Source: Xanthobacteraceae bacterium
GTDB taxonomy: Bacteria > Pseudomonadota > Alphaproteobacteria > Rhizobiales > Xanthobacteraceae
DNA length: 64,000 bases
NCBI GenBank assembly: GCA_035623195.1
Contig: DASPTX010000114.1
Location: 16,293 to 80,292, forward strand
Direction of reading: 5' to 3'
In this document: piece by piece, positions 9,884 to 33,156 of the stretch
Numbering within the stretch: position 1 is the stretch's first letter
Layout of the letters: the number at the start of each line of letters is the position of its first letter
Program-made: the position numbers and the translations under genes
Notes under the pieces: model-generated
Database searches by the model: none
The model's input: the letters and a program-made list of their open reading frames with translations, nothing else
What the model was told of the DNA's origin: nothing

Positions 9884-9908
9884 AACGAGCGCGGACCCGC
9901 CATGTTCC
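9884..9908 (-). promoter_or_regulatory. sigma-EcfG-type promoter motif GGAAC-N16-CGTT upstream of the ABC exporter
   Basis: Minus strand GGAACATGGCGGGTCCGCGCTCGTT. All nine consensus bases match. 36 nt upstream of the ORF start. Confidence 0.6.
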
Positions 9909-10134
9909 GCCGGCGTCGATGCACCGGCATCAACATTCGCCGCAATTTGTTACGGGCCGCCGACGCTGCAATGGTTTCGGGCTTTGTATGTCGTTGTTAA
10001 TGCAACCGGAGCGGCAAAAGTTCCCGAAAGCTGGAAAAATTAAGTTCCCTCCATAAATCGAAATATTTTGCGATTGCGACGTTGTCGGTAGTCGTTCGGG
10101 TGAGGACTCCATCGAACACGCAAAGGACTTTTAG

Positions 10135-11205
10135 ATGCATATTGCCCAAGTCGCGCCGTTGACAGAGGCCATCCCACCGAAGCTTTATGGCGGCACCGAA
10201 CGGGTCGTTTCCTGGCTGACGGAAGAGCTCATCTCGCTCGGGCACGAGGTCACCCTTTACGCCAGCGGCGACTCGGTGACATCGGCCCAGCTCGAAGCGG
10301 TATGGCCGCGCGCCTTGCGCCTCGAAGGCGCGGTACGCGATCCCAACGCGCTCCATATGGTAATGCTTGAGCGTGTCTATCGGTCCGCGTCGGATTTCGA
10401 TTTCCTGCACTTTCATCTCGACTATTACCCATTCTCGCTGTTTTCCCGGCAGCCGACGCCGTTCGTGACGACGCTGCACGGACGGCTCGACCTGCCTGAG
10501 CATCAGCCGGTCTTCGACACGTTTTCGTCGGTGCCGGTGGTGTCGATCTCGAACGCGCAGCGGCGGCCCTTGCCGCAAGCGCATTGGGTACGTACCGTCC
10601 ATCACGGCCTTCCCGAGCGGCTATTGCTACCGCAGCCGATCAAGCCGTCTTATTTTGGTTTTCTCGGCCGCATCGCGCCCGAAAAAGGCGTCGACCGCGC
10701 CATTCGCATTGCGCAGCATTGCGGCGCACCGCTCAAAATCGCCGCCAAGGTCGATAAAGTCGACGAAGAGTATTTTCACGAGCAGATCAAACCGATGCTC
10801 GCATCGAGCAATACGGAGTTCATCGGCGAGATCGGCGACAAGGACAAATCGGAATTTCTGAGCGGAGCGATCGCGCTCTTGGTACCGATCGATTGGCCCG
10901 AACCATTCGGCTTGGTGATGATCGAAGCGATGGCTTGCGGCACGCCGGTCATCGCCTTCAATCGGGGCTCAACGGCGGAAATCGTCGACGACGGGCTAAC
11001 CGGCTTCGTGGTGGAGGACATCAACGGCGCAACCGGCGCGGTCGACCGGCTCGGACATTTGTCGCGAGAAAAAATCCGCCGGCGCTTCGAACAACGCTTC
11101 ACCGCGCGGCGCATGGCGCAAGACTATTTGAACGCCTACCGCAGCCTCATGGATACGGCCGTCCCGCATTTGCGGCTGGTCGCGCAAAGAACTCCGGCGC
11201 TTTAG
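10135..11205 (+). CDS. glycosyltransferase family 4 (GT-B, group 1)
   Basis: 356 aa. N-terminal MHIAQVAPL...PPKLYGGTERVVSWL and C-terminal EPFGLVMIEAMACGTPVIAF (the EX7E region). Confidence 0.85.
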   Translation: MHIAQVAPLTEAIPPKLYGGTERVVSWLTEELISLGHEVTLYASGDSVTSAQLEAVWPRALRLEGAVRDPNALHMVMLERVYRSASDFDFLHFHLDYYPFSLFSRQPTPFVTTLHGRLDLPEHQPVFDTFSSVPVVSISNAQRRPLPQAHWVRTVHHGLPERLLLPQPIKPSYFGFLGRIAPEKGVDRAIRIAQHCGAPLKIAAKVDKVDEEYFHEQIKPMLASSNTEFIGEIGDKDKSEFLSGAIALLVPIDWPEPFGLVMIEAMACGTPVIAFNRGSTAEIVDDGLTGFVVEDINGATGAVDRLGHLSREKIRRRFEQRFTARRMAQDYLNAYRSLMDTAVPHLRLVAQRTPAL

Positions 11206-11244
11206 CAAGATAGCGCGCGGGCGGCGCCCTCGCCGATGCCAAGG

Positions 11245-12426
11245 CTAGGATTGCGCCTCGTCCGCCGGCTTTGTCTCCGGCATCAGGCGCCAGGCCAGCG
11301 TCAAGCCGACGACGGCGATTGCCGCCAGGCTGGCAAAGGCCGCCGAACTGCCGAAGCGGTCGGTCAGATAGCCCGCAAGCGTCGCGCTCAGCGATGCGCC
11401 GATCCCCGTTGCAGTGCCGAGAATGCCCTGACCGAGATTGAAGTGCCCGGTTCCGCGCGTGAGATCGGCCACCACCAGCGGGACCATGACCGCGAATACC
11501 GCCGCGGTCACGCCGTCGAGAAGCTGCACCGCAACGAGCGCGGATGGATAGGTCACCGTGGCAAACAAGAGCCCGCGGATTGGCAATGCGGCAAAACCGA
11601 TGAGAAGCAGAGGCCGCCGTCCCCAAATTTGCGCCCGCGCGCCGACCCAGGGCGATAAAGCCGCGACGACGAGCTGTGGCACGACGATGCAAGCGGCGAT
11701 GATAAGCGTCGCCCAGCGGGCAGACCTCATTGTGACGACGCTTCCCATCAGCGACAACATCGCCGAATTGGCGAGATGGAATAAGAGCAAACAGCCGGCG
11801 AAAATCAGAAGCGGCCGGTTCTGCATTAATGTGCCCGGGCGGGTCGCTGGGAATGTCGGCGGTTCGGCCGCGGCCCGACGCGGCGGCGCGCCATGGGCGC
11901 GCTCGGGATCGATTTCGTTTTCCGCGATGGCGCGAAGCGCAAATAGCGCCGGAACGAGCAATAACACAGTGACGATGAAGACCGCACGCGCCGAAAGCAG
12001 GTAGCCGCACGCCCCCATCGCGGCGGCGGCCAAGCCGTTGCCCACCGAGGCAAATCGCGCATTGCGGCCGAGTCGTTCGCCGATGGCGGCATGGCCGACG
12101 AGACCGAGGCTGATCGCGGCCATTGCCGGGCCGAGTACGCAGCTCGCAAGCGCGTGCAGAATCGATCCCGCCAGCACGACCGGAAAAATCGGCATCGCCG
12201 CGTAGGTCAGCGCGCTCGCGCAAATGGCGGCGACCGCGACGCCGGCAACGAAACGCTCCGAGCGCGCGGCATCGACGAAGGCGCCGCCGGGCATCTGTCC
12301 GATCAGCGAAACGAAACTCGTAACCGATAAGACAAGCCCGATATCGACCTGGGTCCACCGCTGCGCGGTGAGATACACCGAAACGAAGGGGCCAAAGCCC
12401 GTCTGCACATCGGCAACGAAGAACAC
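11245..12426 (-). CDS. MFS transporter
   Basis: 12-TM pattern. The reading frame stays open upstream of the GTG at 12426 and encodes ...RSLRGLDWFV, so the true N-terminus may lie upstream (see finding). Confidence 0.8.
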   Translation of the reverse strand: MFFVADVQTGFGPFVSVYLTAQRWTQVDIGLVLSVTSFVSLIGQMPGGAFVDAARSERFVAGVAVAAICASALTYAAMPIFPVVLAGSILHALASCVLGPAMAAISLGLVGHAAIGERLGRNARFASVGNGLAAAAMGACGYLLSARAVFIVTVLLLVPALFALRAIAENEIDPERAHGAPPRRAAAEPPTFPATRPGTLMQNRPLLIFAGCLLLFHLANSAMLSLMGSVVTMRSARWATLIIAACIVVPQLVVAALSPWVGARAQIWGRRPLLLIGFAALPIRGLLFATVTYPSALVAVQLLDGVTAAVFAVMVPLVVADLTRGTGHFNLGQGILGTATGIGASLSATLAGYLTDRFGSSAAFASLAAIAVVGLTLAWRLMPETKPADEAQS

Positions 12427-12633: not shown

Positions 12634-13134
12634 TCATTCGACCGGCAGTGGCTCGAGCTTGCCGAGCGCACCGAGAACGACGATGGGTTTGCCGTCCTGA
12701 TATTCGGGAGCCGCCTTGACCTGATCGCGGGTAAGATCGAGGGTGATTTTGGCGTTGGCTTGGCCCGGCGGCGGAAAGTGCAAAGCGTTCCATTCCACGG
12801 CGATCTTGCGGCTGCCAACACCGAGAAAGCCGCCGAAATCGATGATCGCGGCGCGCACGTGACCGCCGCGATCGACGATCACGTCGACGATCCGGCCCAT
12901 ATTCTCGTCGGCGGCGCTCAAAACCTCGCGGCCGAGAATGCCGCCGGCTTCGTGGCTATTGAGTACGGTGACCGACGCCGCTTCCTCGGCGCTCGCCGCC
13001 GGATGGTCGGCGGTCTGGCTCTGTTCCAGCGCCCGTCCCGGCCTTTGGGCTTCTTGCGAAAACGCAAGACCCAACGCCCCGGCAGCAGCGAGGCTCGCAA
13101 CCGCGGCCGTCTTTAACAGGCTCTTGCCGCGCAT
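12634..13134 (-). CDS. secreted PRC-barrel domain protein
   Basis: Start moved to the ATG at 13134 (GGAG 6 nt upstream). Signal peptide MRGKSLLKTAAVASLAAAGALGLAFS. PRC-barrel core LGREVLSAADENMGRIVDVIVDRGGHVRAAIIDFGGFLGVGSRKIAV. Confidence 0.75.
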   Translation of the reverse strand: MRGKSLLKTAAVASLAAAGALGLAFSQEAQRPGRALEQSQTADHPAASAEEAASVTVLNSHEAGGILGREVLSAADENMGRIVDVIVDRGGHVRAAIIDFGGFLGVGSRKIAVEWNALHFPPPGQANAKITLDLTRDQVKAAPEYQDGKPIVVLGALGKLEPLPVE

Positions 13135-13307
13135 GATGGCTCCGTTGGAACTCAGTCCACTAAGCCCTTGCCGGTGCGCTCGGTTCCAAACCGGCCTCGC
13201 CGGTGCCAGCCAATGTGACAACGGCCACGCCGTTCGCCGCGCGGTTCCACGATCGCGAAAGATTCCGGCAATGCCAACCCGGCACAGCCGCTGGGTCGCA
13301 ACGGCCC

Positions 13308-13332
13308 GGAACAATGTGCGTGGTGAATTGTT
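13308..13332 (+). promoter_or_regulatory. sigma-EcfG-type promoter motif GGAAC-N16-TGTT upstream of the Gly/Tyr-rich gene
   Basis: GGAACAATGTGCGTGGTGAATTGTT. 48 nt upstream of ATG 13381. Confidence 0.55.
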
Positions 13333-13380
13333 CCAGATGAGGCAGGGCTCCGTCGGGTGACAGTTCGTAGGAGGGAATCG

Positions 13381-13818
13381 ATGAAACTATTACGTACCTC
13401 GGCTTTAACGGCGGCGCTGATGACGGCGGCCGTTCCATCGCTGACAACTCCGGCTCACGCTTGGGGTTGGGGTTGGCGCGGTGCCGGGTGGGGTTGGGGC
13501 GGGGCGGCACTGGGGCTTGCAGCCGGCGCGGTCGTCGGCAGTGCAATCGCCTCGTCCTACTACGGCTATTACCCGGCTTACGGCTACGGCTATGGAACCG
13601 GTTACGGCTACCCGGCTTACGGCTATGGCTATGGGACCGGTTACACCTATCCGGGTTACGGCTATGGCTATGGGACCGGTTACACCTACCCGGCTTACGG
13701 CTATGGCTACGGGACCGGTTACACCTACCCGGCTTACAGATACGCCTATCACCCCTATATCCGCCGCCATCTCTATGCCGCCACCGCCGGTGTTCGGCAC
13801 TATCGTTATACGCACTAA
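13381..13818 (+). CDS. secreted Gly/Tyr-rich tandem-repeat protein
   Basis: ATG at 13381 with GGAGGGA 5 nt upstream. Signal peptide MKLLRTSALTAALMTAAVPSLTTPAHA, then a WGWGW segment and four 13-aa repeats P(A/G)YGYGYGTGY(G/T)Y. Confidence 0.7.
   Translation: MKLLRTSALTAALMTAAVPSLTTPAHAWGWGWRGAGWGWGGAALGLAAGAVVGSAIASSYYGYYPAYGYGYGTGYGYPAYGYGYGTGYTYPGYGYGYGTGYTYPAYGYGYGTGYTYPAYRYAYHPYIRRHLYAATAGVRHYRYTH
13573..13745 (+). repeat. in-frame 39-bp tandem repeat, ~4.4 copies, inside the Gly/Tyr-rich gene
   Basis: Units start at 13573, 13612, 13651, 13690 and 13729 (CCGGSTTACGGCTAYGGCTAYGGRACCGGTTACRSCTAY). Confidence 0.9.
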
Positions 13819-13892
13819 AAGGGATTCACCTTCTAAAGTGGACTGACTAAACCAGAAAACCAAAGCGCCGTTGTTGCCGTGAACTTTCGCGT

Positions 13893-13928
13893 ATAGCCAG
13901 CCCGCCTGTGGTGGGCTGGCTATTTTTT
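13893..13928 (+). terminator. rho-independent terminator after the Gly/Tyr-rich gene
   Basis: ATAGCCAGCCC-loop9-GGGCTGGCTAT followed by TTTTTT. Confidence 0.8.
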
Positions 13929-14009
13929 CAATGAGATTGAAGACGACACTCACACGAACGAGGGCATGGGAACGAACGGCGGGGTTCCGTTTAAGTAGTA
14001 AACACCAGG

Positions 14010-14104
14010 GCGCAATCGCTTCGAATTGAACCGAATGCGGCTCCATTTTTTCGATAGAGCATGATCTCTTCGAACCGGTCTCGACTTTTCCGGATCATGC
14101 CCTA
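14010..14104. repeat. REP element: GCAATCG..hairpin module plus CATGATC..GATCATG module (copy D)
   Basis: GCGCAATCGCTTCGAATTGAACCGAATGCGGC then GAGCATGATCTCTTCGAACCGGTCTCGACTTTTCCGGATCATGCCCTA. The terminal CTA is the TAG stop of the debranching-enzyme-like gene. Confidence 0.85.
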
Positions 14105-16318
14105 AGCAGAAAATACGATGGAAACGCGGATATTGCCGTTGATGCGGGGCGTATCGAGCGACACGGATTCGCCATGACGCGTCACGCGCAGATCGACGCT
14201 CGATGAAGACAGCCGTAGATCGCGCAGCACCACTTCGTCCAGGAACTCCGGCAGCCGCGGATTGCGCAAGCGGATTTCATGCGCGAACGGATCGAATTCG
14301 AGACCGAGCGAAGCCTCAAGCAAGGTGAAGGGCGTGGCGCTGGCCCAGGCTTGCGGCGAGCAGGCAACCGGATAAAGCGTCGGACCATGACCGCGCTGGC
14401 GCCGAAAGCCGCAGAACAGTTCGGGCAGCCGCCGCTGATCCATATAAGTCGTCGCGCCGAACAATCCGCCGAACACCGTTTCGACGGAACGCTTGGCTTC
14501 GTAGCGCGCCAGCCCGAGCGCGATCAACGCGTTATCGTGCGGCCAGACGGAGCCGTTGTGATAGGACATGGGATTAAAGCGCGCCTCGCCGTGCGCGACC
14601 GTGCGGATCCCCCATCCCGAGAAGAAGCGCGGCTCAAGCAATCCCTTGGCGACACGCGCGGCGCGGTCGGCGGTGGCGATCCCCGTGAATAGAACCTGGC
14701 CGGCATTCGACGTGCGCACCCGGCATGGCTCTTTCGCGCCGTCAAGCGCCAGCGCATAAGTTTCGATGTCTTCGCACCAGAATGCCGCCTCGAACCGCTC
14801 GGCCAGTCGCGTTGCTTCGGCGTCGAGCCTGTCCGCCGCTTCTTTGCGGCCGAGCCTGCGCGCGCAGCGCGCCGCCATCCGTTTGGCGGCGTAGACATAA
14901 CCTTGCACCTCGACCAGCGCGATTGCGCCCTCCGCGAGCCGTCCGTCGGCATGGAAGATCGCATCGTGCGAATCCTTCCAGCCCTGATTGACGAGGCCGC
15001 GTTCGGTCGCGCGCCGGTATTCGACGAAACCGTCGCCGTCCGGATCGCCCGGCCCGTCGATCCAGCCGAGCGACGCTTCGATCGCCGGCCACAGTTCCGC
15101 GATCGCCTCGCGGTCTCCGGTACGTTCGACATAGAGGCCGGCGAGCAGGACAAAGAGTGGGGTGGAGTCGACGCTGCCGTAATAGAGGCCGAACGGAACT
15201 TCCCGCAGCGCCGCCATCTCGCCGCCACGCATTTCATGAAGGATTTTGCCGGGCTGCGCATCGGCAAGCGGGTCGCTCGTCTTGGCCTGATAGACCGCCA
15301 AACGGCGCAACACGCCGCGCGCCACGTCCGGGCTCCACCACAGCATTTGCAGCGCGGTAATCAAGCCGTCGCGGCCGAACGTCGTCGAATACCAGGGAAT
15401 CCCGGCATAGGGATAACGGCCCTGCGGCGTATCCGTCATCAACATTTCAAGATCGGCCGCCGAGCGGCACAGGACCTCGTTGAACCGGGCATTCGAGGTT
15501 TGCACGGAGGTGCGCTCGCGGGTCGCGTCGCGCATTTCCCGGCGCGCCGCGATGAGGCCGCGTATGAACGGCGGCGGGGTGTCCGGACGATTGCAACTGG
15601 CCGCCAGAAAAAGCGGCGTTACGTCGCCGGGCTTAAGTTGCAGATCGTAGACGGCGGCGCCGGTCTTCAACCGATCCGGCGGCGGATCGAATTCGAGCGC
15701 CGTATGTCTCTCCTTGCCGTCCAATCCGCGGTAGGACAACAAGACGCGATCGTCGCCCTGGACCTTCGCGGTTGAGGCGCCGCGGCGTTCGCGATGCGCG
15801 CCGCGCACCTCGAACAAATCGGCGAAGTCGCTCTCGAATAAAATCGTCAGGCGCAGATCGATCGATTGATCGCTGTAATTGCGGATGCCAAGCCGCTGAT
15901 AGGCCGTGTCGCTCCAGATGAAGATAGTGCGAAGAATATGGACACGGTCCTTTTCCATCACGACGCGTTGGCCGTCGATAAGATCGGGATTGGTCAAATC
16001 GACGAAAAACGCCGTGTTGTCGTCGCGGAGATTGGCGCCGAGCAGAAGCGGCGGCCGGCCATTCAACAACAATTCGAGACGCGACAAGTGGCGCGTATCG
16101 TCGTGGAAGAGACCGGACGAGCCGACAAAAGAAGTGCCGATATCGCCGCGGATGTCGAGGACGACGAAAGTGTCGCCGTGTTTGAGCGCACGCGGCAGTT
16201 CGGCGGGCGGCGTCGCGGTGATGGCAAACGCCGCTTCCGGCGGCAAGTTTGGAGAAAATGCCGGCGCCGATCGTGCGCCGGACTGTCCGGTGATAGCGAT
16301 CTTGCTGATCTTTGGCAT
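14102..16318 (-). CDS. amylo-alpha-1,6-glucosidase / glycogen-debranching-enzyme-like glycosidase
   Basis: 738 aa. N-terminal debranching-enzyme-type domain plus a six-hairpin glycosidase C-domain (GIPWYSTTFGRDGLITA, YHNGSVWPHDNALIALGL). Confidence 0.85.
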   Translation of the reverse strand: MPKISKIAITGQSGARSAPAFSPNLPPEAAFAITATPPAELPRALKHGDTFVVLDIRGDIGTSFVGSSGLFHDDTRHLSRLELLLNGRPPLLLGANLRDDNTAFFVDLTNPDLIDGQRVVMEKDRVHILRTIFIWSDTAYQRLGIRNYSDQSIDLRLTILFESDFADLFEVRGAHRERRGASTAKVQGDDRVLLSYRGLDGKERHTALEFDPPPDRLKTGAAVYDLQLKPGDVTPLFLAASCNRPDTPPPFIRGLIAARREMRDATRERTSVQTSNARFNEVLCRSAADLEMLMTDTPQGRYPYAGIPWYSTTFGRDGLITALQMLWWSPDVARGVLRRLAVYQAKTSDPLADAQPGKILHEMRGGEMAALREVPFGLYYGSVDSTPLFVLLAGLYVERTGDREAIAELWPAIEASLGWIDGPGDPDGDGFVEYRRATERGLVNQGWKDSHDAIFHADGRLAEGAIALVEVQGYVYAAKRMAARCARRLGRKEAADRLDAEATRLAERFEAAFWCEDIETYALALDGAKEPCRVRTSNAGQVLFTGIATADRAARVAKGLLEPRFFSGWGIRTVAHGEARFNPMSYHNGSVWPHDNALIALGLARYEAKRSVETVFGGLFGATTYMDQRRLPELFCGFRRQRGHGPTLYPVACSPQAWASATPFTLLEASLGLEFDPFAHEIRLRNPRLPEFLDEVVLRDLRLSSSSVDLRVTRHGESVSLDTPRINGNIRVSIVFSA

Positions 16319-16345: not shown

Positions 16346-16370
16346 AACGTCTTGAGCGCGATATTGTTCC
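16346..16370 (-). promoter_or_regulatory. sigma-EcfG-type promoter motif GGAAC-N16-CGTT upstream of the debranching-enzyme-like gene
   Basis: Minus strand GGAACAATATCGCGCTCAAGACGTT. 27 nt upstream of ATG 16318. Confidence 0.65.
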
Positions 16371-16634
16371 CGCCAATCTTGTCCGCTCCAACGCCAAGCC
16401 GATACGCCATCATCCGATCAAAGAATCATCGGCTTGGTTGCTGCGGTGCAATTTGCGGCAGGCGTGGTTTTCGCGGTGCAAGATTGCCGAAAATTAATGC
16501 AGAACTTTCCATTCGCCGTCTGGAAACTCGGCAGGGGAGATAGCAGTTGAAACAGTTGAAACGCCGGTTTGAATTTGGACGAGCGCCCGGCCGAGGTTGA
16601 TGCCGCAGGCGCGAAGAAAACGTTAGGAAACGCC

Positions 16635-18317: not shown

Positions 18318-18323
18318 TAGCTC

Positions 18324-18368: not shown

Positions 18369-18815
18369 CTAACTACGCCGCTCGCCGCGCTCGCGGCGTT
18401 CACGCGCCCATTGCGCCGCGATGAAACCAACGAGCGCCAGCGGCACGATCCGCTGCCAGCCGACTTCGCGGCCGATTTGCATCGCGGTCGCGAGCGTTCT
18501 CGGGTCAAGGAGCCACGAGGGCGCATGCGCTTTAGCGGCACGCGCGAGGATAGCGCGTTCCTTGACCCTGCGGCGGATCACGAAGCCGACAATCGCGGCG
18601 AGGATTGCAAAACAAACAAAGATCCCCGCCATCACCAGGCCGGCGACGACGGCGCCATAGCGCAGGGACAACCAATCATAGCCGGCTATGCAGATGAAAG
18701 CGAATGCCGTGAGCAGGGCCAGGATCATGACCGCGATGGAAGCCATGACCGCGGCGCTCGCGCCGCTTTTGGCCTGAATCGATAAGATGATTTCCTGAGT
18801 TAAGCCTTTCAGCAT
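18369..18815 (-). CDS. small integral membrane protein (holin-like / YqjE-like), function unknown
   Basis: The track ORF starts inside a REP copy (MIRKSGSRFSEK...). First credible ATG is at 18815 (MLKGLTQEI...). Has 2-3 TM helices. Lies downstream of a DUF883 gene, as in yqjD-yqjE-type pairs. Confidence 0.55.
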   Translation of the reverse strand: MLKGLTQEIILSIQAKSGASAAVMASIAVMILALLTAFAFICIAGYDWLSLRYGAVVAGLVMAGIFVCFAILAAIVGFVIRRRVKERAILARAAKAHAPSWLLDPRTLATAMQIGREVGWQRIVPLALVGFIAAQWARERRERGERRS

Positions 18816-18840: not shown

Positions 18841-18960
18841 CTATTCGGTGAGGCATGATCTTTTTCGGAAAACCGGCTCCCACTTTTCCGGATCATGCCC
18901 TATTCGGTGAGGCATGATCCTTTCGGAAAACCGGTTCCCACTTTTCCGGATCATGCCCTA
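18841..18960. repeat. REP element, short form, two tandem copies (period ~59 bp)
   Basis: CTATTCGGTGAGGCATGATC..CGGAAAACCGG.TCCCACTTTTCCGGATCATGCC occurs twice head-to-tail between the DUF883 gene and the downstream membrane-protein gene. Confidence 0.9.
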
Positions 18961-18987: not shown

Positions 18988-19392
18988 CTAACGACGCCAC
19001 ATCGCGCCCAACAAAAACCCGATCCCGCCTACGATGGCGAGCGTCGTATAAGGGCGATTTTTAAGCGAATCGTCGATCGCGGCGACGAGACTGTCGGACA
19101 CTTCACGCATGGCGTCGGCCGCTTCCTGGCCTTTTTCCTGCGCATCGGACATGGCGCCATCGACGCTCGACTTGATTTGCGAGCTGGTGCGTTGCCAGGC
19201 GGCGGCGCCTCTATTGGCGAGAATGTCGCCAACTTGCGCGGCGAGCCGGCTGAAGTCGGCGCGAAGCGCTTGCAGATCGTCCTGAATGTCTTTCGACGCA
19301 GTGGCGGCGGCTTCCCTGATTTCGCGGGCGCCCTCACGCGCGTCTTTCGTCGTCTCACGAAGATTCTGCGAAACAGTCGAGGTCGAAGTCAT
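18988..19392 (-). CDS. DUF883 (ElaB/YqjD/YgaM) family membrane-anchored stress protein
   Basis: 134 aa. Helical hydrophilic body with a C-terminal anchor YTTLAIVGGIGFLLGAMWRR. Confidence 0.8.
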   Translation of the reverse strand: MTSTSTVSQNLRETTKDAREGAREIREAAATASKDIQDDLQALRADFSRLAAQVGDILANRGAAAWQRTSSQIKSSVDGAMSDAQEKGQEAADAMREVSDSLVAAIDDSLKNRPYTTLAIVGGIGFLLGAMWRR

Positions 19393-19461
19393 GGCTCTTA
19401 CTCCGAAGGTGTGGGGATGCCGGTTTGCTCGAATAAATTCCCAAAGCCCAAAAAGTTCCGA

Positions 19462-20562
19462 TCACTCGGGCAGCCGCACGTCGTCGATCGGGAATAGATG
19501 CTGAACGACAACGAGGAGAATAATCGACAACGGCGCGGCGAGGAAGGCCCCAAACGGCCCCCACATCCAGGTCCAGAAGGCGATCGCGAGAAATACCAAA
19601 AGCGGATTAAGCGTGAAGCGTCGGCCGACAATCATCGGCGTGATGAAATGTCCTTCCATGGCCGTCAGCGCAACGAAAGCGAGCGGCGCGACGACGGCTC
19701 GGCCGAGCGAGGCGAACGTGATGAGGCTGACGCCGAACAGTACAAGCACCATCAGCGCGGGGCCGATATAGGGCACGTAGTTCAACACTGCCGCAAGCAA
19801 CCCGAACATGATTGGATCGGGAAAGCCAAAGAACCAGGCTCCGAGCGCGACAATTGCTCCGACCGCGGCATTGACGATCGTGACGACGCTCAAATAGCCG
19901 GCAAGATTGTGCTCGACGTCGCGCATTATTTTGAGAAAGCGCAGCTTGGCATCGCGGCTGCCGAACATTGAGACAAGCTGACTGCGCAGCTCGATCTGAC
20001 CGACGAGAAAGAAGAACAAGGTGGCGAAAAACAGCAGCAATTCCCCCGCGGCCGGCGTAAGAAAGGCCACAACGGGCAGAACGTAATTGGCCGCGGGCGC
20101 GCTGACCTTCAGCGTCGTGTCGCCGCCGAACAATGTGTTCTCGAGCTCCTGGAGCGCCGCGAGCGGCTGATCGAAAACCGAAAGTTTTTGCTTGATCGAC
20201 GCGCCGATTTCGGGAGCGCGGCCGATCCATTCGCTTACCGGCCCCGCGAGGGTGGTTACCGCCAAGCTCACGCCGCCAACAGCGACGAGCAAAATCAGAA
20301 GGCCGGTAATCCAGGGCGAGATGCCGAAACGTTTGGCCGATTTGACCATCGGTGCCAGCGTCAGCGCAATCACCGCGGCGGCGAGGATCGGCAACAGGAT
20401 GGCGCGCCCGACATAAAGAAAGGCGCCGAACAGAATCAGAAAGATACCGATGGTTGCGGTCTGACCGGCCGATGTCCACATTTTCTGTACGCTGTCGACC
20501 GGCGACGGACCGCCGATCTCCAAAGCGTTGCGAAGTTCGCGACGTGCTAGAATATATTCCAT
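19462..20562 (-). CDS. AI-2E family transporter (PerM/UPF0118)
   Basis: The track ORF begins inside REP copy F. ATG at 20562 is preceded by GGGGAGG. Multi-TM, with the typical C-terminal GPFGAFLAAPL region. Confidence 0.85.
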   Translation of the reverse strand: MEYILARRELRNALEIGGPSPVDSVQKMWTSAGQTATIGIFLILFGAFLYVGRAILLPILAAAVIALTLAPMVKSAKRFGISPWITGLLILLVAVGGVSLAVTTLAGPVSEWIGRAPEIGASIKQKLSVFDQPLAALQELENTLFGGDTTLKVSAPAANYVLPVVAFLTPAAGELLLFFATLFFFLVGQIELRSQLVSMFGSRDAKLRFLKIMRDVEHNLAGYLSVVTIVNAAVGAIVALGAWFFGFPDPIMFGLLAAVLNYVPYIGPALMVLVLFGVSLITFASLGRAVVAPLAFVALTAMEGHFITPMIVGRRFTLNPLLVFLAIAFWTWMWGPFGAFLAAPLSIILLVVVQHLFPIDDVRLPE

Positions 20563-20633
20563 AAGGCCTCCCCGCAGGGCCAAAGCCGCTGGGTATCTTG
20601 CAATAAATGCCGGTTCGCATGGTTCGGTTCCTG

Positions 20634-20709: not shown

Positions 20710-20867
20710 AAAACCGGGTAAATGCGGGCGGGGATTTTTTGCAGGCGCAAAGTGGACGGCCGCGACGGTTTCGGATGCTTCCCCGGCGGTCCCCGCCGCG
20801 GCCTATGGCCTCTGCCCTACCCCCAATCGCGCGCAAGGATTATGGACGCAAGAGATTGAAAGTATGA

Positions 20868-20892
20868 GGAACTTTCCGGATGGCGGGGCGTT
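20868..20892 (+). promoter_or_regulatory. sigma-EcfG-type promoter motif GGAAC-N16-CGTT at the hybrid kinase gene
   Basis: GGAACTTTCCGGATGGCGGGGCGTT. It ends 3 nt before ATG 20896, implying the ATG at 20917 is the start used. Confidence 0.55.
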
Positions 20893-23800: not shown

Positions 23801-24171
23801 TCCTGGTCGTCGAAGACAATGCCGATGTCAGGAAAGCCACGGTCTCGCTGCTGGAGCAACTCGGCTACCGGACGACCGAAGTGGATACGGCAGCCGCGGC
23901 GCTCGACCTGCTCGCCTGCGGCATGGAAATTCATCTCGTGTTCAGCGACGTGGTGTTGCCCGGGCAGACCGACGGCCTGGCGCTGGCGCGAATGCTGGTC
24001 GCGCGCTATCCGCATATTCCGGTCGTGCTCACTACCGGATATGCCAAGGTGTTCGACAGCAATCCGGAATTTCCCGTCCTGCGCAAGCCGTATCAGATTT
24101 CAGCGCTGGGTCGTGTGATTCACGATGCGCTTGGTCAGGCACTGCCGAGCCGGCCTGTGCTGGCGAGGTGA
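20896..24171 (+). CDS. hybrid sensor histidine kinase (several PAS, GAF, HisKA, HATPase_c, receiver)
   Basis: H-box GGIAHDFNNLLMIV. N/G boxes NLAVNARDAM, DTGSGI, GTGLGLS. Receiver ILVVEDN...DVVLPG...KP. ATG at 20917 is the more likely start given the promoter motif at 20868-20892. Confidence 0.9.
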   Translation: MVPGTRVMTGQTSDTAATRGGLKAFIAIEQSALDAIPTGLCVCRADGSLARYNRRAIDLWGRAPRLGDPHETSTGNFRRYTPEGAPLHFAAAPVAVALRSGEPVISAELIIERPDGSQVPVLMNVAPLKNEQGGVDGAVCSFQELTERKRAEEALRASEAELQSVINRTPFMLVRCSRDLRYRFVSEAYAHLIGRGRNEVLDQTIDKVIGARGLDTLRPYIDIVLRGEPVDFECELEFPHSGRRNLAIAYRPELDADGNVGGWIASLLDVTDQRSGEQARRQLASIVESADDPIVSKDLNGIVVSWNPGAQHLFGYTAEEMIGKPITSIIPAHLKREEPRILERIRRGERIEHYETVRRCKDGRLIDVSLTISPMRDKHGTVVGASKIARDVTARKRAEALVRRRADEQAALYRFTNRLYRAETVKDVYEAGLDAIMGAMHCSRASILRCDRDGVMRFVAWRGLSDAYRLATTGHSPWTPGETNPHPVCMTDIDGAELDLRIKAIVKQEGIGALAFIPLMAEGRVTGKFMVYYDASRKFDPEEIELALTLARQLGFALERMRAEQARLDIQAELRLLSERLEDEVERRTLERDRIWNVSEDLLAVSNFEGCFLSINPAWTRLLGWTEDAIKSMHVSELRHPDDAPAAMAALGRLAHGVPTVRIENRFRHKDGSWRWLQWTMTESKGLIYIAGRHVTAEKEAAAALERAQRRTAHLQKMDAIGQLTGGIAHDFNNLLMIVSGHTQGLKQRLHDAKDIRALQAIEMAAARGENLTRQLLSFSRTLPLSPTVINPAETVHAIRDVLAGSMHVNIKFQINVPDSTWPIRVDKSELELALVNLAVNARDAMPEGGRITIAANNVHLRPGDLPEDIGGDFVALSVADTGSGIAPDLVSRVVEPFFTTKAPDKGTGLGLSQVYGFARRSDGTVSINSEVGAGTKVTIYLPRSHAATLAAPSPKDDAEYAAGSRQTILVVEDNADVRKATVSLLEQLGYRTTEVDTAAAALDLLACGMEIHLVFSDVVLPGQTDGLALARMLVARYPHIPVVLTTGYAKVFDSNPEFPVLRKPYQISALGRVIHDALGQALPSRPVLAR

Positions 24172-24434
24172 CCCCGATCGTTTCGGTCGGCTATCGCTCG
24201 TTCGTTCCAGTACGCAGATCGTGCGGAACCCGAGCGCGGAGCCGGAACAGGAACAAAGACGGGACCTGCGGCAGAAGTACCGTTTGCCGCCCCGATAAAA
24301 TGACTTAAATCCGAGGGGGACAAATAGGAAACATCGGGAACCGAGTTCCTTCCCGGACATTCTACTGTCGGGGGCGTGTTACCTTCCCCAGTCCGTTTCC
24401 CCAAGGCTCGGGCCGAATCGACGCGGAAATCGCC

Positions 24435-25193
24435 ATGACCGTTGCTGCATTGCCGCCAATTCCCGGTCTCGGGGATGTGGCCATTTTGCTCGACATCGAC
24501 GGAACGATCTTGGACATCGCTCCGGTGCCGCAAAATGTCGTGGTGCCGGAATCCTTGCGCGGCACGCTCGGCCGGCTGAGCGTATTGACCGACGGAGCGC
24601 TCGCATTTGTCAGCGGACGCTCGCTGGACGATGTCGATCGGCTGTTCGCGCCGCTGCGGCTTCCCGCAATAGCCAGTCACGGCGCGGAATTTCGCCTTAT
24701 ACCCGGAGACGAGAGCGATAGCGGCCCGACGCTCACGCTCGAGCCGCCCCTGAAGACAAAGCTCGACGCCGTCGCCGAACTCGGTCATGGAATCATCGTC
24801 GAGGACAAGGACTACGCGATTGCGCTGCACTACCGATTGGCGCCGGAAAAGGAAGCCGCCGTGCGGGAAGCGGTGGCCGCGATTTGCGCCGACCAGCCTT
24901 CGATCGAAGTCCTTCCCGGAAAATATGTGCTCGAAGTCAAGAAACAGGGCTTTAGCAAGGCCACGGGCGTACGCAGCCTGATGAAACATCCCCCGTTCGC
25001 GGGGCGCCGCCCTATTTTCATAGGCGACGACACGACCGACGAGTCCGTGTTCGCAATAATGCCAGAATTCGGCGGTTTTGCATTCTCGGTCGGCGCCGCC
25101 ACTGGCGTCGTCGACGGATATTTTGAGGGGCCTCCCGCCGTGCGCGACTGGCTTGCAACGATCGCCGGCGGTGAAGCTAACGCCATGCAATGA
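24435..25193 (+). CDS. otsB: trehalose-6-phosphate phosphatase (HAD-IIB)
   Basis: DIDGTILD motif I, FVSGRS motif II, GDDTTDE motif IV. Shares a locus with otsA. Confidence 0.85.
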   Translation: MTVAALPPIPGLGDVAILLDIDGTILDIAPVPQNVVVPESLRGTLGRLSVLTDGALAFVSGRSLDDVDRLFAPLRLPAIASHGAEFRLIPGDESDSGPTLTLEPPLKTKLDAVAELGHGIIVEDKDYAIALHYRLAPEKEAAVREAVAAICADQPSIEVLPGKYVLEVKKQGFSKATGVRSLMKHPPFAGRRPIFIGDDTTDESVFAIMPEFGGFAFSVGAATGVVDGYFEGPPAVRDWLATIAGGEANAMQ

Positions 25194-26977
25194 ACGATCA
25201 TGGACTTGATCTAGCGCTGATAGGCAATGGTCGTACCGCAGCACTGATCGATCCGCAGTCGCGCATCGTTTGGTGGTGTTTTCCCGGCTTCGACGGCGAC
25301 CCAATCTTTTGCCGGCTGCTGGCGGGCGGCGAAGAGAAGGGTTACTCCGACGTCGTGCTTGAAGACGAAGTCGATTTCCAGTCCGAATATTTGCGCAATA
25401 CAGCGGTCGTTTCCACGTTGCTGACCGATCGGCGCGGCGGAGTTGTTCGGATCACGGATTTCGCGCCGCGCTTTCGACAATACGGCCGCGTCTTCCGTCC
25501 GCCGCAACTGTTCCGAATCATCGAACCGATCGCGGGACTGCCGCGCATCACGATACGGGTGCGGCCCACCCACAATTACGGTCGGCCGTTTCGGCAGCAT
25601 TCGGTCGGCAGCAATCATATACGTTATATCAACGCCGATACGGTCATTCGGCTCACCAGCGACGCTCCGCTCTCGCTGATCGAGCAGGAAGCGCCGTTCG
25701 TTCTGACCCGCCCGATCCACCTCGTGATCGGGCCCGACGAGCCTTTCACCGGCGAAATCACCACCACGTGCCGCGAGTTCGCCGACCGCACGCGCGACTA
25801 TTGGATGGATTGGGTGCGCAGCCTGTCGATTTCATATGACTGGCAGGAGGCCATCATCCGCGCTGCGATCACGCTCAAGCTCAGCACGTTCGAGGAAACC
25901 GGCGGCGTGATCGCCGCGCACACCACGTCCATTCCCGAGGCGCCCGGCTCGGGCCGAACCTGGGACTACCGCTACTGTTGGCTGCGCGACGCCTATTTCG
26001 TCGTCAAAGCGCTCAACCGTGTCGGCGCGACGCAGACCATGGAGGACTTCATCACGTTCACGCTCGGCCTTGCCGCCAACCCTGACCAGGCGCTGCGGCC
26101 CGTGTACAGCGTCGTGCCGACAAATTCGCTCGAAGAGCGCACCGCGCCGGATCTGGAGGGCTATCGCGGCGACGGCCCGGTGCGTATCGGCAATGCCGCG
26201 TCGGGCCAAGTTCAGCACGACACCTATGGCAGCATCATTCTTGCCGCGATGCCGATGTTTTTCGATCGCCGCCTGCCGCGGCCCGGCGACGAAGGATTGT
26301 TTCAACTTCTGGAAACGCTCGGCGCGCGCGCCGCGAAGCTGGCGTTGGAGCCGGATTCTGGCATTTGGGAATATCGCGGCCGGCAGCGCGTCCACACGCA
26401 CTCCGTTGCGATGTGTTGGGCGGGCTGCCACCGGCTCGCCGCTATCGCGGCGAGGCTCGGCCTCGACGCGCGCGCGAAGTATTGGAACGCGGTCGCCGAT
26501 CCCATTCATACGGAACTTCTGGCGCGGGCGTGGAACGAGAAACGCGGCGCATTCACCGCGGCATTCGGCTCCGACGATCTCGACGCCAGCGTTCTGCTCC
26601 TGCCCGATCTCGGCATTATCGAGACCGACGATCCGCGATTCAGCAGCACCGTCGCCGCAATGGAGCGCGAGCTCGTGCGCGAGAAACACGTGATGCGCTA
26701 CACGAGCTCGGACGATTTCGGCATACCGATGACGGCATTTCTGATCTGCCGCTTCTGGCTGATCGACGCCTGGTGGTCGCTCGGGCGCCGCGACGACGCC
26801 AAGGAACTGTTCGAGGACGCCCTGCAGCATCGCAACAGGTATGGGCTACTCTCGGAAGATGTCGATCCCAAGTCGGGCGCCTTGTGCGGAAACTTCCCCC
26901 AGACCTATTCGATGGCGGGGCTGATCCTGACCGCGATGCGGCTGTCGCGAAGCTGGGAAGACCGCTACTGGCGCTGA
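25190..26977 (+). CDS. glycoside hydrolase family 15 (glucoamylase/trehalase-like)
   Basis: 595 aa. LIGNGRTAALID N-terminus; WDYRYCWLRDAYF and later acidic catalytic regions typical of GH15. Its start overlaps the otsB stop (ATGA). Confidence 0.85.
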   Translation: MNDHGLDLALIGNGRTAALIDPQSRIVWWCFPGFDGDPIFCRLLAGGEEKGYSDVVLEDEVDFQSEYLRNTAVVSTLLTDRRGGVVRITDFAPRFRQYGRVFRPPQLFRIIEPIAGLPRITIRVRPTHNYGRPFRQHSVGSNHIRYINADTVIRLTSDAPLSLIEQEAPFVLTRPIHLVIGPDEPFTGEITTTCREFADRTRDYWMDWVRSLSISYDWQEAIIRAAITLKLSTFEETGGVIAAHTTSIPEAPGSGRTWDYRYCWLRDAYFVVKALNRVGATQTMEDFITFTLGLAANPDQALRPVYSVVPTNSLEERTAPDLEGYRGDGPVRIGNAASGQVQHDTYGSIILAAMPMFFDRRLPRPGDEGLFQLLETLGARAAKLALEPDSGIWEYRGRQRVHTHSVAMCWAGCHRLAAIAARLGLDARAKYWNAVADPIHTELLARAWNEKRGAFTAAFGSDDLDASVLLLPDLGIIETDDPRFSSTVAAMERELVREKHVMRYTSSDDFGIPMTAFLICRFWLIDAWWSLGRRDDAKELFEDALQHRNRYGLLSEDVDPKSGALCGNFPQTYSMAGLILTAMRLSRSWEDRYWR

Positions 26978-29935: not shown

Positions 29936-29960
29936 AACAAAATCTACACGCGAAAGTTCC
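29936..29960 (-). promoter_or_regulatory. sigma-EcfG-type promoter motif GGAAC-N16-TGTT upstream of the glucose-dehydrogenase-like/GH15 pair
   Basis: Minus strand GGAACTTTCGCGTGTAGATTTTGTT. 43 nt upstream of ATG 29892. Confidence 0.55.
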
Positions 29961-30091: not shown

Positions 30092-30116
30092 GGAACAAAA
30101 CTACTCGCCGCGCGTT
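30092..30116 (+). promoter_or_regulatory. sigma-EcfG-type promoter motif GGAAC-N16-CGTT upstream of otsA
   Basis: GGAACAAAACTACTCGCCGCGCGTT. 24 nt upstream of ATG 30141, with the GGAGGGA RBS in between. Confidence 0.7.
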
Positions 30117-30140
30117 AATCGCTCCGATGGAGGGATTCCT

Positions 30141-31595
30141 ATGAGTCTGGTGGTCGTCTCAAATCGGGTTGCGCCAACGCAGGCCAATGAGCCGATCCCG
30201 GGAGGTTTAGCCTCCGCGCTGCTGCCGGTCGTGAAAGAATCCGGCGCGATCTGGATCGGATCGAGCGGTCGATTGTGCGAAGACCCTGCCAAGGAATCTT
30301 TTGCGGAAATCGAATCGCTTGGCGCCGGAGCCATCGCGACCGTCGATTTCCCGGCGGCGCACTATTCCGGCTTCTACGAGGGTTTCTCGAACTCGGCTCT
30401 ATGGCCTGCATTGCACTCGCGGCCGGACCTCATCCGCGTCACCGACGACGATTATAAATCCTACCGGGCCGTCAACGCCTTCATGGCGCGCGCGCTCATC
30501 CGCTTTGCGCAGCCCGACACGATCTATTGGGTCCAGGATTATCATTTCTTGACGCTGGCCGCGGAGCTGCGGCGATCAGGGATCGTGCAGCCGATCGGCT
30601 TTTTCCTGCATACGCCCTGGAGCGACCGCGCGACCATGCTCGGCATGCCGCATCATCGCGAAATCGTTTCGGCGATGCTGGCCTATGATCTGATCGGCTT
30701 TCAGACCGACGACGACCGGAAAAATTTCGAGGAAGGCCTTAAGCACGATCTCGGACTTGCCGTGACCAACGGTTTTGTCACCTCCGCATACGGCCGCACG
30801 CGATTGGCGACCTTTCCGATCGGCATCGATCCGGACGATTTTGCCGCGCGGGCTCTCAAGGCCTCCAACCGGTCCGAAGTGTCTCGGTTGCGCGCGAGCC
30901 TGCGGGGCGCGAGGCTTGTGCTCGGGGTCGATCGCCTCGATTATTCCAAAGGCATCACCAACCGCATGCGCGCCTTCGATCGCGTGTTGGAAACCGAGCC
31001 GGGCTGGGCCCATCGGATTTGTCTTCTGCAGATCGCTGTGCCCTCGCGCGGCCGCATCGCGGCCTACGGCGAGTTCAAGCGAGAGCTCGCGACCTTGATC
31101 GGCGAAATCAACGCCCGGCATGCCGATATCGATTGGGTGCCGATCCGGTATCTGAATAAGGGCTTCGCCCAATCGACCTTGGCCGGATTCTATCGGCTGG
31201 CGCGCGTCGGCCTGGTGACGCCGCTCCACGACGGGATGAATCTCGTCGCCAAGGAATATGTCGCGGCGCAAAATCCCGCCGACCCCGGCGCGCTGATTCT
31301 GTCCCAGTTTGCCGGTGCCGCGAAGGAACTCGACACTGCGCTCCTGGTGAATCCGTACGACATCAACGACATCGCACGGAACATTTCGCGGGCCTTGGTC
31401 ATGTCAGGCGACGAACGCCGCGAGCGCTGGCAGACGATGATCGCAAGATTGAAGTCGCGGCCGATCCAGGCCTGGTTCTCCGATTTCGTGGTTGCGCTCA
31501 CGGAAGCCCGCCGTTCCGCGCCGCGTTCCACGGCGACGGTTCTCAGATTGCCGGTCCCGGACAATCGAGGCGGGCGAACCGCGATTTCACGCTGA
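30141..31595 (+). CDS. otsA: alpha,alpha-trehalose-phosphate synthase (GT20)
   Basis: ATG at 30141 with GGAGGGA 5 nt upstream. MSLVVVSNRV start, WVQDYHF, LVTPLHDGMNLVAKEY. Confidence 0.9.
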   Translation: MSLVVVSNRVAPTQANEPIPGGLASALLPVVKESGAIWIGSSGRLCEDPAKESFAEIESLGAGAIATVDFPAAHYSGFYEGFSNSALWPALHSRPDLIRVTDDDYKSYRAVNAFMARALIRFAQPDTIYWVQDYHFLTLAAELRRSGIVQPIGFFLHTPWSDRATMLGMPHHREIVSAMLAYDLIGFQTDDDRKNFEEGLKHDLGLAVTNGFVTSAYGRTRLATFPIGIDPDDFAARALKASNRSEVSRLRASLRGARLVLGVDRLDYSKGITNRMRAFDRVLETEPGWAHRICLLQIAVPSRGRIAAYGEFKRELATLIGEINARHADIDWVPIRYLNKGFAQSTLAGFYRLARVGLVTPLHDGMNLVAKEYVAAQNPADPGALILSQFAGAAKELDTALLVNPYDINDIARNISRALVMSGDERRERWQTMIARLKSRPIQAWFSDFVVALTEARRSAPRSTATVLRLPVPDNRGGRTAISR

Positions 31596-31650
31596 CGCCG
31601 CGATCGCGCCAGACTCATTTTCCGAACCTTCATCGGCTTGATCGAAACCA

Positions 31651-33069
31651 GTGCAGATCGTTGAAACGGATGTGCCGGCGCGGCTCGACCGTCTCCCTTG
31701 GGCCCGTTTTCATACGCTCGTCGTCATCGCCCTTGGCGTGACCTGGATCCTCGATGGGCTTGAAGTGACTTTGGCGGGTTCGCTCGCGGGCGCGTTCAAA
31801 CAAAGCCTGCATTTCAGCGATGCCGAGGTCGGCATGGCCGGCAGCTTTTACCTGACCGGGGCCGTTCTCGGCGCGATAATCTTCGGTTGGCTGACCGACC
31901 GGCTCGGCCGCAAGAAGCTCTTTTTCACGACGATCGCCGTCTATCTCGTCGCAACCGCGGCGACGGCCCTGTCATGGAGTGTGGCGACGTTTGCGCTATT
32001 TCGCTTCTTCACCGGCGCGGGAATTGGCGGCGAATACGCCGCGATCAACTCCGCGATTCAGGAACTGACGCCCGCCCGGGTACGCGGCTGGACGGATCTC
32101 ATCATCAACGGCAGTTTCTGGATGGGCGCGGCGATGGGCGCCGCCAGCGCGATTGTGTTGCTCAACCCGGCGATCATCAGCCCCGACATCGGCTGGCGCT
32201 TGGCGTTCTTGACCGGCGCCGTGCTCGCGCTCTTCATCTTTCTTATGCGTTTCTGGATTCCGGAGAGCCCGCGCTGGCTCATGACCCACGGCCGCGTCAA
32301 GGATGCCGAAGCGATCGTAGCCGACATCGACGAAGACCTGCGCCGGCGCGGTCACGTTCTGCCGCCGGCCAACTTGCCGCGCCTGCGGCTTCGCATGCGC
32401 GGCCACACCTCGCTCCTCGAAGTGGCGCGAATTCTGTTCCGAGAGCATCGCCAGCGTACCCTGGTCGGGCTCAGCCTGATGGCGGCGCAAGCGTTCTTTT
32501 ACAATGCGATCTTCTTCACCTACGCGCTCATCTTGACGGATTTTTACGGCGTCCCGCCGGATCGCGTCGGCTGGCATATCCTGCCTTTTGCCGCCGGCAA
32601 TTTTCTCGGGCCGGTCATGCTGGGCCGGTTGTTCGACACCGTCGGGCGAAAGCCGATGATCGTCTTCACCTATGCAACGTCCGGCGTGCTGCTTGCCGCC
32701 GTCGGCACCCTGTTTGCGCGCGATGCGCTGACTGCGACGTCGCAAACGATCGGCTGGACGGTGATCTTCTTTTTCGCCTCGTCGGCGGCGAGTTCGGCCT
32801 ACCTCACCGTGAGCGAGACATTTCCGCTCGAAATCCGCGCGCTTGCGATTGCGATATTCTACGCCATAGGCACCAGCATCGGCGGCATTATGGGCCCGTT
32901 TTTCTTCGGTGTATTGATCCAAAGCGGCTCGCGCGCGAGCGTATTTGTCGGCTATCTGTCCGGATCCGTACTTATGATTTTGGCGGCGTTGATCGCGAGC
33001 CGCTGGGCGGTTGCCGCCGAACGCAAACCGCTCGAAACGGTGGCCCCGCCCCTGGCGTCGGCCGATTGA
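31651..33069 (+). CDS. MFS transporter (sugar-porter / metabolite:H+ symporter-like)
   Basis: 472 aa, GTG start. LTDRLGRKK loop motif and FTGAGIGGEYAAINS. 12 TM. Confidence 0.8.
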   Translation: MQIVETDVPARLDRLPWARFHTLVVIALGVTWILDGLEVTLAGSLAGAFKQSLHFSDAEVGMAGSFYLTGAVLGAIIFGWLTDRLGRKKLFFTTIAVYLVATAATALSWSVATFALFRFFTGAGIGGEYAAINSAIQELTPARVRGWTDLIINGSFWMGAAMGAASAIVLLNPAIISPDIGWRLAFLTGAVLALFIFLMRFWIPESPRWLMTHGRVKDAEAIVADIDEDLRRRGHVLPPANLPRLRLRMRGHTSLLEVARILFREHRQRTLVGLSLMAAQAFFYNAIFFTYALILTDFYGVPPDRVGWHILPFAAGNFLGPVMLGRLFDTVGRKPMIVFTYATSGVLLAAVGTLFARDALTATSQTIGWTVIFFFASSAASSAYLTVSETFPLEIRALAIAIFYAIGTSIGGIMGPFFFGVLIQSGSRASVFVGYLSGSVLMILAALIASRWAVAAERKPLETVAPPLASAD

Positions 33070-33131
33070 CGTTTGGCTGGCCGGCCTCGACCGATCGCAA
33101 CCAAACCGCCGTTGCCGCCGGCATTAGCCAT

Positions 33132-33156
33132 GGAACTCCGGCCACTTTGGCTCGTT
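33132..33156 (+). promoter_or_regulatory. sigma-EcfG-type promoter motif GGAAC-N16-CGTT upstream of the tkt operon
   Basis: GGAACTCCGGCCACTTTGGCTCGTT. 46 nt upstream of ATG 33203. Confidence 0.65.

Follow-up and report, generated by a model that had tools for sequence, protein, structure and literature searches.

The stretch of DNA analysed here (64,000 nucleotides, referred to below as the window) makes up most of a 70.7-kb metagenome contig (ENA ERZ27251323, k141_1453500), and its segment from 8.0 to 39.2 kb very probably represents a dense cluster of promoters recognised by an EcfG-type general-stress sigma (σ) factor, assigned to group 15 of the extracytoplasmic function (ECF) sigma factors (ECF15), in an uncultured soil alphaproteobacterium. 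Twelve accepted sites, each composed of a GGAAC −35 box and a CGTT or related −10 box separated by 16 or 17 nt (N16 or N17), head ten transcription units, which together hold about 18 of 21 genes. The −10 box reads CGTT at five sites, TGTT at two, CATT at three, GCTT at one and ATTT at one. At eleven sites it lies 24–73 nt from the start codon; the exception is the tandem site at 9999–10024, about 185 nt upstream of its gene. A first-pass annotation of the window had placed six of seven sites 24–48 nt from a start codon, a range that becomes 24–73 nt with the corrected starts.

GGAAC-N16-CGTT is the experimentally supported EcfG motif of Rhizobium etli (PMC3892343) and Sphingopyxis granuli (PMC7083833), and EcfG has been reported to be exclusive to the Alphaproteobacteria (PMC3892343). 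The −35 element of S. granuli is nearly invariant and the −10 element flexible; its commonest alternatives, TGTT, CATT and GGTT, are active by in vitro transcription, although more weakly than CGTT (PMC7083833). In sequence, spacing, position and orientation the sites in the window fit this published consensus, as the first-pass annotation had proposed. They share with the promoters of PhyR-NepR-EcfG systems (ECF15; SigT, RpoE2, RpoE4) the GGAAC and CGTT boxes, the 16-nt spacer, the tolerated −10 variants TGTT and CATT, and a location within 100 nt of coding sequences, where the motif is also enriched in Sphingomonas melonis (PMC6599016).

The motif was searched for over the whole window on both strands, and the chance level was taken from dinucleotide-preserving shuffles (n = 100). 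GGAAC-N16-CGTT occurs seven times (9884−, 16346−, 20868+, 21230−, 30092+, 33132+ and 45719−) vs. 0.66 by shuffling, and none of the 100 shuffles reaches seven. GGAAC-N16-TGTT occurs three times (13308+, 13310− and 29936−) vs. 0.25 by shuffling, again with no shuffle in 100 reaching the observed number, and GGAAC-N17-CGTT has no match on either strand of the window. When spacings of 8 to 26 between GGAAC and CGTT were compared within the window, N16 was the only one enriched (seven matches, five of them intergenic; Poisson P ~5 × 10⁻⁵), and each of the others gave 0 to 4 CGTT matches, with an intergenic mean of 0.39. The window is about 84% coding; its non-coding DNA (15.7%) holds eight of the ten N16 (C/T)GTT matches (binomial P = 1.2 × 10⁻⁵).

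All sites that had been reported before were recovered with the same coordinates and strands: the five intergenic GGAAC-N16-CGTT sites, the two GGAAC-N16-TGTT sites and the three weaker variants. Three matches had been overlooked, namely the palindromic partner at 13310–13334(−) and two exact GGAAC-N16-CGTT sequences in coding DNA, a number compatible with chance (P = 0.11 for two or more). One of the latter, at 21230–21254(−), is antisense within the hybrid kinase gene and is judged to be a chance match outside the system: none of 39 kinase orthologues has the motif at the orthologous position, vs. 45 of 55 for the kinase promoter (Fisher P = 2 × 10⁻¹⁷). The other, at 45719–45743(−), lies on the sense strand within a DAGK-family gene (45266–46198) and is probably chance as well. 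The earlier set of promoters also lacked two conserved sites, at 9999–10024(−) and 20606–20631(−), which came from a weight-matrix scan. As the matrix was trained on the sites already recognised, the scan is circular for these, and it served solely to nominate new sites, which were then checked by conservation. Longest-open-reading-frame gene calling in the related loci mislabels promoters as coding, and its intergenic/coding split was kept out of the evidence.

Conservation was followed in five or six soil-metagenome contigs that share the gene order of the window (L082, L083, L084, L117, L127 and L160). Contigs of the same lineage retain both boxes at eleven of the twelve accepted sites, while spacers and flanks have diverged; the remaining site, at 13308, is absent from the relatives. 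Judged from these alignments, the boxes are under selective conservation at orthologous loci. The motif also extends to other alphaproteobacteria (L002, L003, L029 and L051), in which orthologues of the glucose-dehydrogenase-like gene, otsA, otsC and the GH15 genes are preceded by GGAAC-N16-NGTT. The glucose dehydrogenase orthologue of Enhydrobacter (L029) has GGAAC-N16-CGTT; in an alphaproteobacterial metagenome-assembled genome (L002) the corresponding gene has GGAAC-N16-GGTT and otsA has GGAAC-N16-AGTT; and the exact motif stands upstream of otsC in Astrobacterium and of a GH15 gene in Chelativorans. No motif was found upstream of orthologues in Gemmatimonadaceae, Burkholderiales and Actinobacteria, including four non-alphaproteobacterial glucose dehydrogenase orthologues. 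CsbD and DUF892 genes, too, have the exact motif upstream of them in related contigs. A search of a plasmid collection with window positions 20–34 kb returned short, distant matches only and no close annotated relative.

The most widely sampled promoter is that of a PAS-GAF-PAS hybrid histidine kinase gene (20917–24171), an exact GGAAC-N16-CGTT at 20868–20892(+). A metagenome scan with the kinase yielded 79 soil contigs with 53–86% amino acid identity, among them 55 orthologous loci with upstream sequence, and GGAAC-N16/17-NGTT is found at the same position in 45 of these 55. The upstream alignment has its highest information content at GGAAC, at GTT within the −10 box and at a GGGG ribosome-binding site, and the spacer is variable. 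This pattern also shows that the gene starts at ATG 20917, an ATG that the first-pass annotation had mentioned beside the annotated one at 20896; the conserved sequence ATG(A/C)GTGGT and a GGGGA ribosome-binding site support the former and not the latter. Decayed versions of the promoter, with a −35 box of GGAGG, GGAGT or GGAGC or a −10 box of ATGTC, are seen in L094, L097, L098, L099 and L132, and this points to a loss or weakening of EcfG control in certain lineages.

In most kinase orthologues a further conserved box, AAGGGATTGAAA, of the form AAG(G/A)GATTGAAA, lies 5–6 nt upstream of the −35 element (window 20850–20862, +). This box has no σ70 −10 match at the proper distance; candidates for its role are an activator site, a repressor site and an UP-like element. 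The EcfG-type promoter and the extra box are kept together across a broad family of soil alphaproteobacteria. Beside some kinase orthologues a small gene behind an EcfG motif was suspected to represent nepR-ecfG, and proved to be CsbD.

Three of the exact sites head genes of trehalose and sugar metabolism. The promoter of otsA (30141–31595) and the following gene for an OtsC-like MFS sugar transporter (31651–33069) is GGAAC-N16-CGTT at 30092–30116(+); its sequence, GGAACAAA...CGCGTTAA, is kept in L082 and L083, and the rest of the 250-nt intergenic region is mostly diverged. The tkt–gnd-like–zwf–pgl–gntK operon (33203–39207) follows GGAAC-N16-CGTT at 33132–33156(+), where the pattern GTGGAACTC.GGCC..TT.GGCTCGTTTGTTT is kept in L083 between diverged flanks; since this site is flanked by two genes on the same strand, its orientation is informative. 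The tkt start at 33203 is conserved in L083, and the gene call of the contig (33356; 654 amino acids) would remove a conserved N-terminus; on this comparison, 33203 is the better start. On the opposite strand, an operon of a glucose-dehydrogenase-like gene and a gene for a TreH-like GH15 protein (GH15b; 26999–29871/29892) is preceded by an exact GGAAC-N16-TGTT at 29936–29960(−), kept in L082 and L083; the glucose-dehydrogenase-like gene probably starts at GTG 29871. The other TreH-like gene, GH15a, follows otsB in an operon (24435–26977) headed by the variant GGAAC-N16-CATT at 24337–24361(+), and this site, GGGAACCGAGT...GAACATTCT, is kept in four of four contigs, the diverged L127 included. 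Overlapping stop and start codons in otsB/GH15a, in the glucose-dehydrogenase-like gene/GH15b and in gnd/zwf suggest that these genes form operons. The DNA between the kinase gene and otsB (window 24270–24320, +) holds a conserved hairpin, GGCAGAAGTGCC, with TTTT after it in the relatives; this hairpin is probably the terminator of the kinase gene. The otsB −35 box is immediately preceded by a conserved block, GATTAGATGACTTAAAT.

Other promoters of the cluster serve transporters, a glycoside hydrolase and envelope or secreted proteins. A gene for an MsbA-like ABC exporter (8057–9814) has an exact GGAAC-N16-CGTT, P1, at 9884–9908(−); both boxes are conserved in L082, which carries a 21-nt indel downstream. 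The gene starts at ATG 9814, as in the gene call of the contig (585 amino acids), which places the −10 box 69 nt from the start and not 36 nt as stated before. Upstream of P1 lies the second candidate site for this gene, GGAAC-N17-CATT at 9999–10024(−), the top-scoring site outside the training set in the weight-matrix scan; its −35 and −10 boxes are identical in L082 and its spacer has diverged. The other site nominated by the scan, GGAAC-N17-CATT at 20606–20631(−), lies 43 nt upstream of the start (20562) of a gene for an AI-2E family transporter (19462–20562), a start that agrees with a gene call of 366 amino acids; this site, GGAACCGAAC...GGCATTTAT, is kept in six of six contigs within otherwise unalignable intergenic DNA. 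A gene for a GDE_N_bis/MGH1-like glycoside hydrolase (14102–16318) follows an exact GGAAC-N16-CGTT at 16346–16370(−); the pattern GGAACAA.ATCG...ACGTT is kept in L082 and L084, in which the DNA upstream is unalignable and the leader about 150 nt longer. The PRC-barrel gene (12634–13134) is preceded by the variant TTGGAAC-N17-GCTTAG at 13162–13187(−), of which GGAAC and GCTTAG are kept in L082 (N17) and in L084 (N16) while the spacer and the upstream DNA have diverged. The DUF883 gene (18988–19392; DUF883_C domain), which is followed by a gene for a small membrane protein (18369–18815), has the weak promoter GGAAC-N16-ATTT at 19435–19459(−); its GGAAC is invariant in six of six contigs and its −10 box reads ATTT, ACTT or GCTT. 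The AI-2E transporter, DUF883 and small membrane protein genes count together as one of the ten transcription units.

The remaining site is a palindrome, GGAACAAT-N11-ATTGTTCC, at 13308–13334, which can be read on both strands. The plus reading, GGAAC-N16-TGTT at 13308–13332, lies 48 nt upstream of a gene for a secreted Gly/Tyr-rich protein (13381–13818, +), which has an AGGAGGG ribosome-binding site and encodes a signal peptide followed by GY repeats; the minus reading, at 13310–13334, lies 176 nt from the start of the PRC-barrel gene. Both the Gly/Tyr-rich gene and the palindromic site are absent from L082 and L084. The missing part is a block of about 800 nt (within window 13188–14101) that comprises the gene, its palindromic promoter and a hairpin at 13969–13988, and that is lacking in these otherwise syntenic contigs; a promoter–gene cassette has thus been inserted or deleted in a lineage-specific manner.

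Known EcfG regulons offer close parallels for part of this gene content. The regulon of S. melonis includes PRC-barrel, glycosidase and trehalose genes (PMC6599016), and those of S. melonis Fr1 (PMC6599016) and S. granuli TFA (PMC7083833) together resemble the cluster in their PRC-barrel, glycosidase, glycosyltransferase, trehalose and small secreted protein genes and in a flexible −10 element. These regulons were defined by transcriptomics and in vitro transcription, whereas the cluster described here is defined by sequence and comparison. Literature searches for DUF883, transketolase and glucose dehydrogenase as EcfG targets gave nothing useful, and the tkt–zwf operon, the ABC exporter and the AI-2E transporter were not found in the papers on EcfG regulons that were consulted.

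The nearest counterpart of the trehalose genes is in Bradyrhizobium diazoefficiens, in which EcfG controls otsA and otsCB and the otsC product is a trehalose transporter of the MFS type (PMC8092242). Here too, otsA, otsB and a gene for an OtsC-type MFS transporter stand behind EcfG-type promoters, and stress-induced trehalose accumulation is the predicted function. The gene order differs, however, being otsA–otsC and otsB–GH15 here and otsC–otsB plus otsA in B. diazoefficiens; and, unlike in that species, the locus also takes in both TreH-like GH15 genes, the glucose-dehydrogenase-like gene and the tkt–gnd–zwf–pgl–gntK operon, with EcfG-type promoters of their own. The genome of B. diazoefficiens is multi-megabase in size. 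Compared with its EcfG regulon of "more than a hundred genes" (PMC8092242), the density in this 31-kb part of the window, with some 12 sites for 10 transcription units, is unusual.

We infer from the promoter sequences that the genes of the cluster depend on EcfG. In the established PhyR-NepR-EcfG pathway, stress leads to phosphorylated PhyR, which would titrate the anti-sigma factor NepR; EcfG freed from NepR would then direct RNA polymerase to the promoters of the cluster. The CGTT sites (ABC exporter, GDE-like gene, kinase, otsA and tkt operon) would be strong and the TGTT, CATT and GCTT sites weaker. The predicted output is the co-induction of trehalose synthesis and uptake with TreH-like breakdown of trehalose to glucose, glucose oxidation, gluconate phosphorylation, the NADPH-yielding oxidative pentose-phosphate route, and envelope proteins. 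The cluster is a real and expected instance of a well-known regulon and no new kind of regulatory system. Its interest lies in the density of the promoters, in trehalose turnover coupled to the zwf operon and in the widely conserved kinase promoter: for an uncultured lineage of soil alphaproteobacteria that is common in metagenomes of forest, peat and tropical soils, it predicts general-stress targets down to the single promoter and with good support, with several gene starts corrected; it points to co-induction of trehalose turnover and the oxidative pentose-phosphate route along with trehalose synthesis; and it presents a conserved hybrid kinase with an EcfG-type promoter as a candidate for study. 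A bolder proposal, more doubtful than probable, would take the 31 kb as a conserved "general-stress island", in which a complete trehalose cycle (OtsA/OtsB, OtsC-like transporter and two TreH-like GH15 proteins), glucose dehydrogenase with GntK, an oxidative pentose-phosphate operon and the hybrid kinase stand behind individual EcfG-type promoters, and in which the kinase might provide the general stress response with a feedback or output branch that has so far gone unrecognised.

Among other explanations, the one with most in its favour, itself improbable, is that these are genuine ECF-type promoters read by a different ECF sigma factor of similar GGAAC/CGTT preference, such as an envelope-stress factor, and not by EcfG or a paralogue. 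An AAC core in the −35 element, which is near-invariant for ECF sigma factors (PMC7083833), and a CGT-like −10 element are shared by many ECF groups; the products of several downstream genes are envelope or secreted proteins; a conserved element of non-canonical sequence, GAAAC-N17-AGTTGA, belongs to the neighbouring LTXXQ gene (16523–16548); and the contig carries no ecfG gene. Yet the full nine-base pattern with strict N16 spacing is the exact EcfG consensus, and the cytoplasmic otsA and otsB products, together with CsbD and DUF892 in related contigs, form a signature of general stress and not of envelope stress; a different ECF sigma factor is unlikely because these signature cytoplasmic stress genes lie downstream.

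That some of the sites are operators for a dimeric transcription factor has a still smaller probability and concerns chiefly the palindrome at 13308–13334, a perfect 8+8 inverted repeat, and perhaps the sites flanked by extra conserved boxes, AAGGGATTGAAA at the kinase and GATTAGATGACTTAAAT at otsB. The other eleven sites are not palindromic, however; the plus reading of the palindrome is properly spaced from a gene with a strong ribosome-binding site; any TGTT −10 box that precedes CC creates such an inverted repeat of itself, because TGTTCC is the reverse complement of GGAACA; and the extra boxes are compatible with added regulation over an ECF promoter. The operator reading is plausible only for the palindrome. 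Least probable of all, to the point of being negligible, is that the matches are functionless, arising by chance, as a by-product of composition or from the selection of intergenic regions in the first-pass annotation. Two exact matches do lie in coding DNA, one of them clearly unconserved, and the bare GGAAC pentamer is itself somewhat enriched in non-coding DNA (41 of 149 occurrences). Against this stand the unbiased search of the whole window, with a count that no shuffle reached, the restriction of the enrichment to spacing 16 and the selective conservation of the boxes across orthologous loci.

Several observations nevertheless weigh against assigning the cluster to EcfG. The search for regulators covered the window and the remaining 6.7 kb of the contig, and no ecfG, nepR or phyR, nor any other sigma or anti-sigma factor gene, was found on the 70.7-kb contig, both ends included; for this reason, the presence of the sigma factor is assumed from taxonomy. 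The alphaproteobacterial assignment comes in turn from the best matches of a few proteins, at 62–70% amino acid identity. The comparison contigs are fairly close (~75–90% amino acid identity), and some of the conservation may be too recent to signal selection. The intact motif is missing in 10 of the 55 kinase orthologues, and the palindromic Gly/Tyr site has no comparable locus in the relatives. The DUF883 site is weak, with a −10 box that has no G and a position within a wholly conserved spacer region of about 70 nt, and its footprint discriminates poorly because that whole region is conserved; its ATTT falls outside the accepted EcfG −10 variants (TGTT, CATT and GGTT), so that it is not strictly an EcfG-type box.

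The lack of regulators also bears on the description of the locus as a regulon "hub" in the first-pass annotation: it is a dense cluster of target promoters and not a regulatory hub, because phyR, nepR and ecfG, or any other sigma or anti-sigma factor gene, are not on the contig. In this it differs from described EcfG systems, and the regulators must be encoded elsewhere in the genome. As for the host, GH15b, OtsC, Tkt and the glucose dehydrogenase have their best relatives in alphaproteobacteria, Astrobacterium (Nitrobacteraceae) among them; for GH15b, the nearest relatives in genomes are alphaproteobacterial, at 69–70% amino acid identity, and include that of Astrobacterium formosum. The host is probably an uncultured soil alphaproteobacterium of the Hyphomicrobiales.

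Gene families were assigned with Pfam and NCBIfam. The locus begins with the ABC exporter gene (−), followed by genes for a GT1 glycosyltransferase and an MFS transporter, the PRC-barrel gene (−), the Gly/Tyr-rich gene (+), the GDE_N_bis/MGH1-like gene (−) and a gene for an LTXXQ protein. It continues with the small membrane protein, DUF883 and AI-2E transporter genes (all −), the kinase gene (+), and otsB and GH15a (+), and ends with GH15b and the glucose-dehydrogenase-like gene (−), otsA and the MFS sugar transporter gene (+), and tkt, gnd-like, zwf, pgl and gntK (+). An Rfam scan of the whole window found one tRNA only. The DNA upstream of the GT1 glycosyltransferase gene (window 10000–10135, +) is near-identical in L082, far above neighbouring intergenic DNA, and has no Rfam match; a structured leader or closely packed regulatory sequences could account for this. 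About 85 nt separate the GAAAC-N17-AGTTGA element (16523–16548, +) from the LTXXQ (Spy/CpxP-like) gene downstream of it, which starts at ATG 16635. The element is kept in L082 and L084; it is ECF-like and non-canonical for EcfG, and a different ECF sigma factor, one for envelope stress, may recognise it.

Downstream of the cluster, a class I/II aminotransferase gene is split into two overlapping open reading frames (39473–39961 and 39921–40538; +), of which the gene call of the contig keeps the C-terminal part only (205 amino acids); the split suggests a frameshift or a pseudogene. The GC content of the window is about 62%, and between 38000 and 54000 it falls from ~0.62 to 0.55–0.59, with a tRNA gene at 53966–54039(−). 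This region may be a horizontally acquired segment; no conserved EcfG-type site was detected there, the sole exact match being the coding one at 45719–45743. Tandem pairs of a dispersed, palindromic repeat, CATGATCCGGAAAAGTGG[G/A]A[A/G]CCGGTTTTCCGA.A, are present at 18863–18958(−) and at 59873–59969(+); the repeat period is ~58–62 nt. Between the DUF883 gene and the next gene the copy represents an insertion, absent from L082, L083, L084 and L160, and it falsely lengthens the downstream open reading frame, the real start of which is ATG 18815. The repeat looks like a REP/MITE-type element; similar artefact reading frames, of the type IRKSG.RFSEK, are common in genomes of the Bradyrhizobium family.

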